A stretch of DNA of 33,382 bases from a virus (taxonomy: Duplodnaviria > Heunggongvirae > Uroviricota > Caudoviricetes). The notes under the pieces were generated by a model that was not told the origin of the DNA, made no database searches, and worked only from the letters and a program-made list of their open reading frames with translations. The stretch is taken from IMG/VR virus record IMGVR_UViG_2874945390_000012, one strand, 5' to 3'. Every line of letters begins with the position of its first letter. The first letter of the stretch is position 1. The position numbers and the translations under genes were made by a program. Positions 117 through 198 of the stretch are shown here, piece after piece.

Positions 117-198
117 AGCGCGCAAAATTATTCAAGATAGATATGGAATTCTTTCAAGATAAGCCAGAAGCGCGCATATGGAAGTTATTCAAGATAAA
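117..198. repeat. Prophage right-end (attR) repeats; candidate transposase-binding sites
   Basis: Three copies of TTCAAGATA(A/G) at 131-140, 153-162 and 189-198, and two GCGCGCA boxes at 118-124 and 170-176. TTTCAAGATAA resembles the TTTCACGATAAA core of the Mu R2 site as I recall it. Lies between the host gene fragment and the mom stop. Confidence 0.5.

Follow-up and report, generated by a model that had tools for sequence, protein, structure and literature searches.

A Mu-like prophage in dsbG carries at its right end three putative binding sites for its own transposase

Introduction

The stretch of DNA analysed here (33,382 nucleotides, referred to as the window) carries close to its first base an array of short repeats, and this array raises the question of whether it forms the attachment end of a transposable prophage and, if so, which part of which protein reads it. 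Transposable-phage ends with three transposase-binding sites have been known since the 1980s and the Sp18-like family has been present in the databases since 2001. To our knowledge, a 3'-terminal TA is unusual in the transposase superfamily concerned, for which CA is the rule. In reviews, a target duplication of 5 bp (Mu) or 6 bp (B3) is treated as a hallmark of transposable phages (PMC8705779). A first-pass annotation of the window had interpreted the repeats as three transposase-binding sites at attR, which differ from the R1/R2 sequences of Mu, and had suggested a mosaic Mu-like element with its own end specificity. Our data indicate that the segment 114-197 is very probably the attR of a transposable Mu-like prophage in dsbG with three putative binding sites for the transposase of the same element, and we propose that the repeated word is read by an I-beta-like helix-turn-helix domain.

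Results

Three repeats at the prophage/host junction

When the window was searched for repeated motifs, we found that the word TTCAAGATA(A/G) is present in three copies, which start at positions 131, 153 and 188, and thus, the three repeats noticed at the right end are real. They are the sole matches in the 33,382 bases, even if one mismatch is allowed, and their start-to-start spacing is 22 and 35 nucleotides. Apart from this word, the window contains no 9-mer with at least three non-overlapping copies within 100 nucleotides, and a cluster of this kind did not arise in any of 200 block-wise shuffles. The second and the third copy are part of a longer repeat of 27 nucleotides with 81% identity (141-167 versus 176-202). 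From base 114 onward, the sequence reads TAAAGCGCGCAAAATTATTCAAGATAGATATGGAATTCTTTCAAGATAAGCCAGAAGCGCGCATATGGAAGTTATTCAAGATAAAACAG. The coordinates of all features are summarized in Table 1.

Table 1. Features of the window (positions count from its first base)
Feature	Position	Strand	Basis or remark
Host flank, internal dsbG fragment interrupted by the prophage	1-113	+	comparison with E. coli K-12
Predicted copy of the target duplication, TGAG	110-113	.	expected from the 4-bp repeats at all six related insertions
Right terminus and terminal box TAAAGCGCGCAA (first GCGCGCA box)	114-125	+	junction comparison
Transferred 3' end, ...GCGCGCTTTA-3'	ends at base 114	-	
R1, putative transposase-binding site, 22 bp	119-140	+	word in the end-distal half
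R1 word, TTCAAGATAG	131-140	+	motif search of the window
R2, putative 22-bp site, contiguous with R1	141-162	+	
R2 word, TTCAAGATAA	153-162	+	motif search of the window
Second AAGCGCGCA box, between R2 and R3	168-176	+	significance doubtful
R3, third putative site	176-197	+	same orientation as R1 and R2
R3 word, TTCAAGATAA	188-197	+	motif search of the window
GC-rich hairpin with A and T runs on its flanks, two-way intrinsic terminator	200-226	both	just inside R3
mom, last gene before the right end	240-935	-	Mom 96% identical to Mu Mom (protein)
MuB-like AAA+ ATPase, target-DNA activator	30260-31210	-	41% identical to MuB (protein)
Transposase, 698 amino acids	31286-33382	-	window stops exactly at the start codon
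I-beta-like helix-turn-helix (codons 121-200) with RTISRDPLYQWVLKY	32783-33022	-	identity profile, module classes, co-variation, MuA I-beta profile alignment

Bases 1-116 of the window are identical to dsbG of E. coli K-12, and this dsbG segment is present in all 5,423 E. coli genomes in which a match was obtained. The TAA at 114-116 matches both the element and dsbG, the fit to dsbG being coincidental. The right end (87 bp) is present in six of the 5,426 complete E. coli genomes searched, and IMG/VR contigs contributed six more copies. Since the right ends at different loci of complete genomes always begin with TAAAGCGCGC and since the IMG/VR copies agree with them, the terminus is base 114. 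In all, 13 right junctions besides that of the window support T114; seven of them come from complete genomes, each at a different place, and six from IMG/VR contigs. The array, for which position 117 had been given as the start, begins therefore 3 nucleotides earlier and is located exactly at the junction between prophage and host.

Six independent insertions of related prophages, each at a different locus, are flanked by 4-bp direct repeats that lie flush with the termini (TTCA, GAAA, ATTC, CAGG, TAAG, TATA), and the termini of these elements are 5'-TA...TA-3'. Other ways to parse the junctions (a TG terminus 2 nucleotides inside or 4 nucleotides outside, a 5- or 6-bp duplication) were rejected because all six insertions agree solely with TA...TA termini and a 4-bp duplication. 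For a sister element in LC727881, GenBank annotates a 4-bp duplication, which is borne out by its sequence. In the window prophage, a second TGAG would be expected beyond the analysed sequence, at the left junction and next to ...CCTAGTCATA. In window orientation, this junction is expected to consist of ...TTATCTTGAATAAATTACCTAGTCATA followed directly by TGAGTAACACACTT (left end of the class described below as class A, TGAG, rest of dsbG).

A 4-bp target duplication was seen throughout this group of Mu-like elements; its right ends always start with 5'-TA and its left ends with TA or TG. Such junctions are located at window positions 110-114 and, in the loci of our collection, at L001 7201-7205 and 41823-41827, L003 3843-3847 and 39091-39095, L008 1773-1777, and L021 374-378.

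Counted from the terminus, the words of R1, R2 and R3 start at 18, 40 and 75 (18-27, 40-49 and 75-84). As in a Mu-type end, where three is the typical number, these repeats of about 22 bp lie within about 100-180 bp of the terminus. When we compared six distinct right ends of class A, both the word and its position turned out to be invariant while the spacers drift. Besides the three ATTCAAGATA words, the terminal TA and AGCGCG are unchanged in all of them.

The first-pass annotation had paired the repeats with two GCGCGCA boxes, and here the outcome was different for each box. The first one is the family-wide terminal sequence, resembles the right terminus of Mu and is shared by relatives that carry a different word, TTTGATAC; its TA and AGCGCG are invariant across the right ends compared. 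The second box is not conserved, since at its position diverged class-A right ends carry AAGCGGCAC (L033) and CGCGTGTGA (L035). We therefore rejected this box as functional partner of R3. The complete motif AAGCGCGCA occurs at 116-124 and 168-176, and a third, inverted copy is present at 291-299 inside mom. Three copies within 184 bp compare with about 0.6 expected in the whole window, and we found no role for the copy inside mom.

Beyond R3, a terminator-like site (200-219) is followed by a T run. An inverted repeat was detected there, and the site is homologous to the same position in Mu. On the minus strand, the hairpin follows the mom stop codon. Searches for Rfam families in window positions 1-1500 and for sigma-70-like promoters in positions 1-1300 gave no match, and for this reason, a function of the array as RNA or as promoter was dropped.

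Inverted sites at the left ends of related prophages

The absence of the motifs from the other prophage end had been named as the observation that would speak against an attachment end. However, in 10 related prophages from E. coli, Shigella and Salmonella, we found matching left ends, which start with TATGACTAGGTAATTTATTCAAGATAACC and carry three inward-facing, inverted copies of TTCAAGATA at +18, +89 and +141 (+140 in one of them). These words are located about 34 kb from the right end and adjoin the repressor gene. As the left end of the window prophage lies beyond the window, its intactness was deduced from relatives that are 99-100% identical, and on these grounds, it is probably intact.

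Although copies of the right end were found in bacterial genomes and contigs, a collection of 50,697 phages returned chance matches only, with no record carrying a TTCAAGATA end. Scanning species-representative genomes with the transposase yielded two close loci, both at an insertion site other than dsbG. In the literature searched, we found no description of the TTCAAGATA end class, and the papers on vB_YpM_5, SuMu and Sakai Sp18 describe neither ends nor duplications.

Gene content of the prophage

After the hairpin, mom and then com follow on the minus strand, and thus, the window runs backwards through a Mu-like prophage, starting from its right end. For the kil-gam and com-mom segments, DNA identity to Mu amounts to 87-90%. 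At the protein level, identity to Mu amounts to 92% for Gam, 62% for Mor, 41% for B, 30-50% for the late gene products and 25% for the transposase. Thus, the description of Gam as close to Mu was confirmed, but Mor cannot be called near-Mu; the transposase is indeed divergent. The suggestion of a mosaic Mu-like element with its own end specificity is borne out by the contrast between the kil-gam and com-mom segments on the one hand and the A and B proteins on the other, and by the co-variation of the end word with a sub-domain of the transposase, which is described below. Judged from these sequences, it is the transposition module, along with both ends, that has been replaced.

No homologue of the Mu gin gene was detected in the window. 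The tail-fibre region (window 1196-3171) shows only partial similarity to the G segment of Mu. In vB_YpM_5, a hin-type invertase gene is located beside com.

Domain structure of the transposase

As would be expected for an element with attachment ends of the Mu type, the window contains genes for a DDE transposase, the N-terminal part of which has putative end-binding domains, and for the MuB-like ATPase. Pfam searches identified a Mu-transposase C-terminal domain, a weak match to the Mu DNA-binding domain and an rve-like core, but neither DDE_2 nor HTH_Tnp_Mu_2, the I-gamma family, was matched in the transposase. Sequence searches of the PDB placed the core nearer to retroviral integrases than to MuA. 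A winged helix similar to I-alpha comes first and is followed by helical domains similar to I-beta and I-gamma, by the rve-like core, which is the catalytic part, and by the C-terminal domain of Mu transposases. Residues 1-319 were also modelled with AlphaFold (mean pLDDT 74), and the model shows a winged helix (1-73), a disordered linker (75-93) and helical domains (95-291). The profile alignment to MuA stops at residue 149, so that the recognition helix was placed on MuA by its pattern and not by alignment.

According to transposase identity, the closest phages are the Yersinia phages vB_YpM_5/6 (81%), followed by Mu-like phages inserted in Stx phages (76%) and Klebsiella phage Kp4866-3 (56%). 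For SuMu and D3112-like phages, identities of 31-43% were calculated. The Mu-like phages inserted in Stx phages have been described as Sp18-like (PMC10132054).

Residues 1-73 of the transposase (window 33164-33382) co-vary with the repressor type and do so independently of the end class (repressors in L001, L003, L007 and L018). STEC346, which has class-A ends, and vB_YpM_5, which has ends of class B, share 83% identity of their repressors and 85% of their transposase N-termini. The class-A element VL40 carries a different repressor (36%) and a different transposase N-terminus (48%). In RM9088, the N-terminus of the repressor visibly resembles that of its own transposase, as is the case in Mu.

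Two classes of end words and transposase modules

Among the relatives, vB_YpM_5, the Stx-phage element and Kp4866-3 share the right terminus and the positions 18, 40 and 75, but the word at these positions is TTTGATAC or, more generally, (A/T)TTGATAC. To compare the proteins, we aligned the transposases to the window protein in bins of 30 residues. For the vB_YpM_5 protein, identity amounts to 93-100% in residues 211-630 but to no more than 33-63% in residues 121-210. For the protein of STEC346, the ends of which carry TTCAAGATA, identity is 93-100% from residue 61 to residue 630, and most differences lie in residues 1-60. Among database homologues, two module classes can be distinguished: class A has the segment RTISRDPLYQWVLK and class B has R(A/T)LS.I(T/S)LKRW.

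The module class predicted the end word correctly at 14 of 14 loci, with TTCAAGATA at all ten class-A loci and the other word at all four class-B loci. These loci include two Salmonella class-A proteins (68-72% identical in the N-terminal part) that were picked by protein before the DNA was read, and here, three copies of TTCAAGATA were found at the expected spacing. The locus of a Salmonella class-B protein carries three copies of TTTGATAC. Within each class, the word is invariant across the members from E. coli, Shigella, Salmonella, Klebsiella and Yersinia phages.

Residues 61-90 also differ between classes A and B. We set them aside as specificity determinant because they are predicted to be disordered and are variable within class A.

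In a more distant relative from Providencia rettgeri (L026, about 2780-2920; 46% identity; recognition segment RGVSVRSLQEWVTLYQ), both end words are absent from the region upstream of the transposase. At this place, it carries a repeated TTTGCA(C/T), which may represent a third specificity class.

Comparison with Mu and other transposition systems

In Mu, R1 and R2 are found in the same register as in the window, that is, as contiguous 22-bp sites which begin about 5 bp inside the terminus and carry the conserved word in their end-distal part, and Mu also has three sites per end. The right-terminal sequence of Mu, TGAAGCGGCGCA, resembles TAAAGCGCGCAA of the window. The fold order of I-alpha, I-beta and I-gamma, the MuB-like ATPase that follows, and the location of mom and of a terminator just inside the end are likewise Mu-like.

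The sequences of the sites are different, as had been proposed. Where the window has its word, Mu R1 has CGCGAAAG (positions 20-27) and Mu R2 has GCGAAAA; the Mu word is CGAAA(A/G) versus TTCAAGATA(A/G) here, and the 22-bp MuA consensus with its CGAAA(A/G) half-site was not found in the end of the window. DNA homology to the window starts only at 188 for Mu and SfMu and at 244 for D108. Mu has TG...CA termini and a 5-bp duplication versus TA...TA and 4 bp here. R3 is inverted in Mu (reverse complement of the MuA consensus) but direct in the window, and L1-L2 and L2-L3 are spaced by 71 and 52 nucleotides versus about 104 and 40 in Mu. An rve-like core instead of DDE_2 separates the window transposase from MuA. 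Thus, none of the features that define the ends of canonical Mu, D108 and SfMu (consensus, TG...CA with 5 bp, MuA-type transposase) was found here.

The spacer between L1 and L2 (ACCGGGA[AG]GA...GGGAT.TGATGGGATT) is about 80% identical to that of Mu, and the binding sites that flank it are unrelated (spacers at L001 7229-7275, L003 3871-3915 and, for Mu, L006 28-75). In Mu, this spacer is the HU-binding bend. At the right end, Mu homology resumes inside R3 (window 188-202), where TTCAAGATAAAACAG aligns with TTCAA-ATGAAACAG of the inverted R3 half of Mu. This alignment may be a chance extension or may hint at the origin of the third site.

The Sp18-like STEC prophages (such as the LC727881 element, which lies in an Stx2c phage), vB_YpM_5/6 and Kp4866-3 belong to the same transposase family. 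They share with the window element the lineage, the 4-bp duplication, the right terminus TA(A/T)AGCGCG, the right-end sites at 18, 40 and 75, three left-end sites and Mu-like late genes. However, they differ in the word of the sites, (A/T)TTGATAC, and in the recognition segment of the I-beta-like module, R[AT]LS.I[TS]LKRW versus RTISRDPLYQWVLK here.

D3112/B3-like Pseudomonas phages and SuMu belong to the same broad transposase lineage and have three putative 22-bp binding sites at each end (PMC4378225). In contrast to the window element, their ends have the conserved terminus 5'-TGT and other site sequences, their late region is of the siphovirus type, and the B3 duplication comprises 6 bp (PMC8705779). 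We did not observe sequence similarity between the window system and the end recognition of Tn7-family TnsB proteins. Tn7 is a non-phage element, which moves by cut-and-paste with TnsA and generates a 5-bp duplication.

Discussion

The proposal of three transposase-binding sites at attR is supported by an array that abuts the junction, by inverted copies at the left ends of the relatives, and by a word and a spacing that stay constant where the spacers drift. From the co-variation of word and protein module, we infer that the transposase physically binds these sites. The I-beta-like helix-turn-helix (residues about 121-200 with the recognition segment RTISRDPLYQWVLKY) would read the end-distal word TTCAAGATA, and contacts to the terminal box TAAAGCGCGC and to the half-site nearer the end would be made by the nearly invariant I-gamma-like domain and the catalytic core. 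Placing the I-beta-like module on the distal half-site is our reading of the analogy to MuA, the I-beta domain of which reportedly reads the distal, better conserved half-site. Three right sites, three inverted left sites and an enhancer bound by the I-alpha-like domain would then be assembled into a Mu-type transpososome. This complex would nick at the 3'-terminal ...TTTA and join the ends to the target with a 4-bp stagger. The 3'-terminal TA, unusual as it is for this superfamily, is an argument against this scheme.

An alternative explanation accepts that the sites bind the transposase but considers TTCAAGATA and TTTGATAC as tolerated drift, or locates the specificity outside residues 121-200 (in both sub-domains or in the linker). 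Both words have a T-rich start and a GATA core, and the difference in residues 61-90 between the classes would also be compatible with this explanation. However, the word is strictly invariant within each class while the flanking DNA drifts, and the Salmonella class-A proteins, which are only 23-53% identical at residues 61-90, keep both the word and RTISRDPLYQWVLK. Moreover, the two classes share 93-100% identity in their I-gamma-like region. We consider tolerated drift, or a specificity located elsewhere, unlikely and prefer reading of the word by the I-beta-like module.

It is less likely still that the window copy is a hybrid or defective prophage, the right end of which is mismatched to its left end or to its transposase, so that the array would be a relic. 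Such a hybrid does exist in E. coli 06-00048, IS elements or rearrangements have interrupted further copies, and the left end of the window copy lies out of view. On the other side, its transposase belongs to class A and is 99.9-100% identical to those of VL40 and FDAARGOS_943, and in these two prophages, the left ends have the matching sites as well as 4-bp duplications. The right ends of the two also show 100% identity to that of the window, and between mom and the transposase, both included, every reading frame of the window is uninterrupted and collinear with theirs. These data argue for a matched pair of end and transposase in the window copy.

Finally, the repeats might serve another purpose (mom regulator, host protein, termination) or be a chance cluster, and their position directly downstream of mom and next to the terminator hairpin as well as the recurrence of AAGCGCGCA inside mom would fit with this, but we regard this explanation as very improbable, since the same word is inverted at the opposite end, 34 kb away and beside the repressor gene, since it tracks the transposase and not mom (Mu-type prophages with 92-94% identical mom lack the word and match only from window 197), and since chance was excluded by the shuffles and no Rfam family or promoter-like site was found.

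Taken together, these data support the conclusion that the window carries the attR of a known kind of element with an end-specificity class which is rare and undescribed within the phage collection and the literature searched. Since this kind of end and the Sp18-like family have both long been known, no principle is overturned. The TTCAAGATA and TTTGATAC classes constitute a natural matched pair, in which the catalytic and I-gamma-like parts are nearly identical and the I-beta-like module and the word differ. This pair may be useful for studying how a transposase changes its end specificity and how co-resident Mu-like prophages are insulated from each other. The 4-bp duplication and the TA termini are of importance for the prediction of prophage boundaries, as tools that seek TG...CA and 5-6-bp repeats would mis-call these ends.

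More generally, two mutually exclusive pairs of transposase and ends, one for TTCAAGATA and one for TTTGATAC, may have arisen in a single family of Mu-like phages with transposases of about 80% identity, by an exchange of the I-beta-like helix-turn-helix (about 80 residues) along with the six sites at both ends, with the I-alpha-like module tracking the repressor independently. The elements would then form a natural three-module system (immunity, end recognition, catalysis), which departs from the rule of a 3'-terminal CA and from the 5-bp stagger. We consider this generalization about as likely as not. If it is true, the two classes would be orthogonal and prophages of different classes in one cell would not cross-mobilise each other.

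Several copies of the element are found in rearranged surroundings. The hybrid of E. coli 06-00048 (L005, 4216 and 39120) combines a canonical Mu left end (TGTATTGATTCACTTGAAG) and a MuA-type transposase of 662 residues with a right end of the TTCAAGATA type, and it lacks a target duplication. A matching class-A left end is located about 100 kb away, and TATA is present on both outer flanks. This arrangement points to an inversion between a canonical Mu-type and a class-A prophage, which would have left mismatched ends. The ends of the hybrid are also present on a 136-kb record labelled as plasmid (L020, about 456). In E. coli STEC388 (L004, L019), both ends of one class-A prophage in fliH share the CAGG duplication, and in the assembly, they are 0.9 Mb apart. 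IS26 and IS66 copies are present inside this prophage, and the arrangement looks like a large rearrangement that was seeded within it. Many near-identical partial transposases were found in Shigella flexneri draft contigs of 29-34 kb, which are broken inside the transposase gene; these breaks suggest that several copies of the region, or another repeat located there, stop the assemblies.
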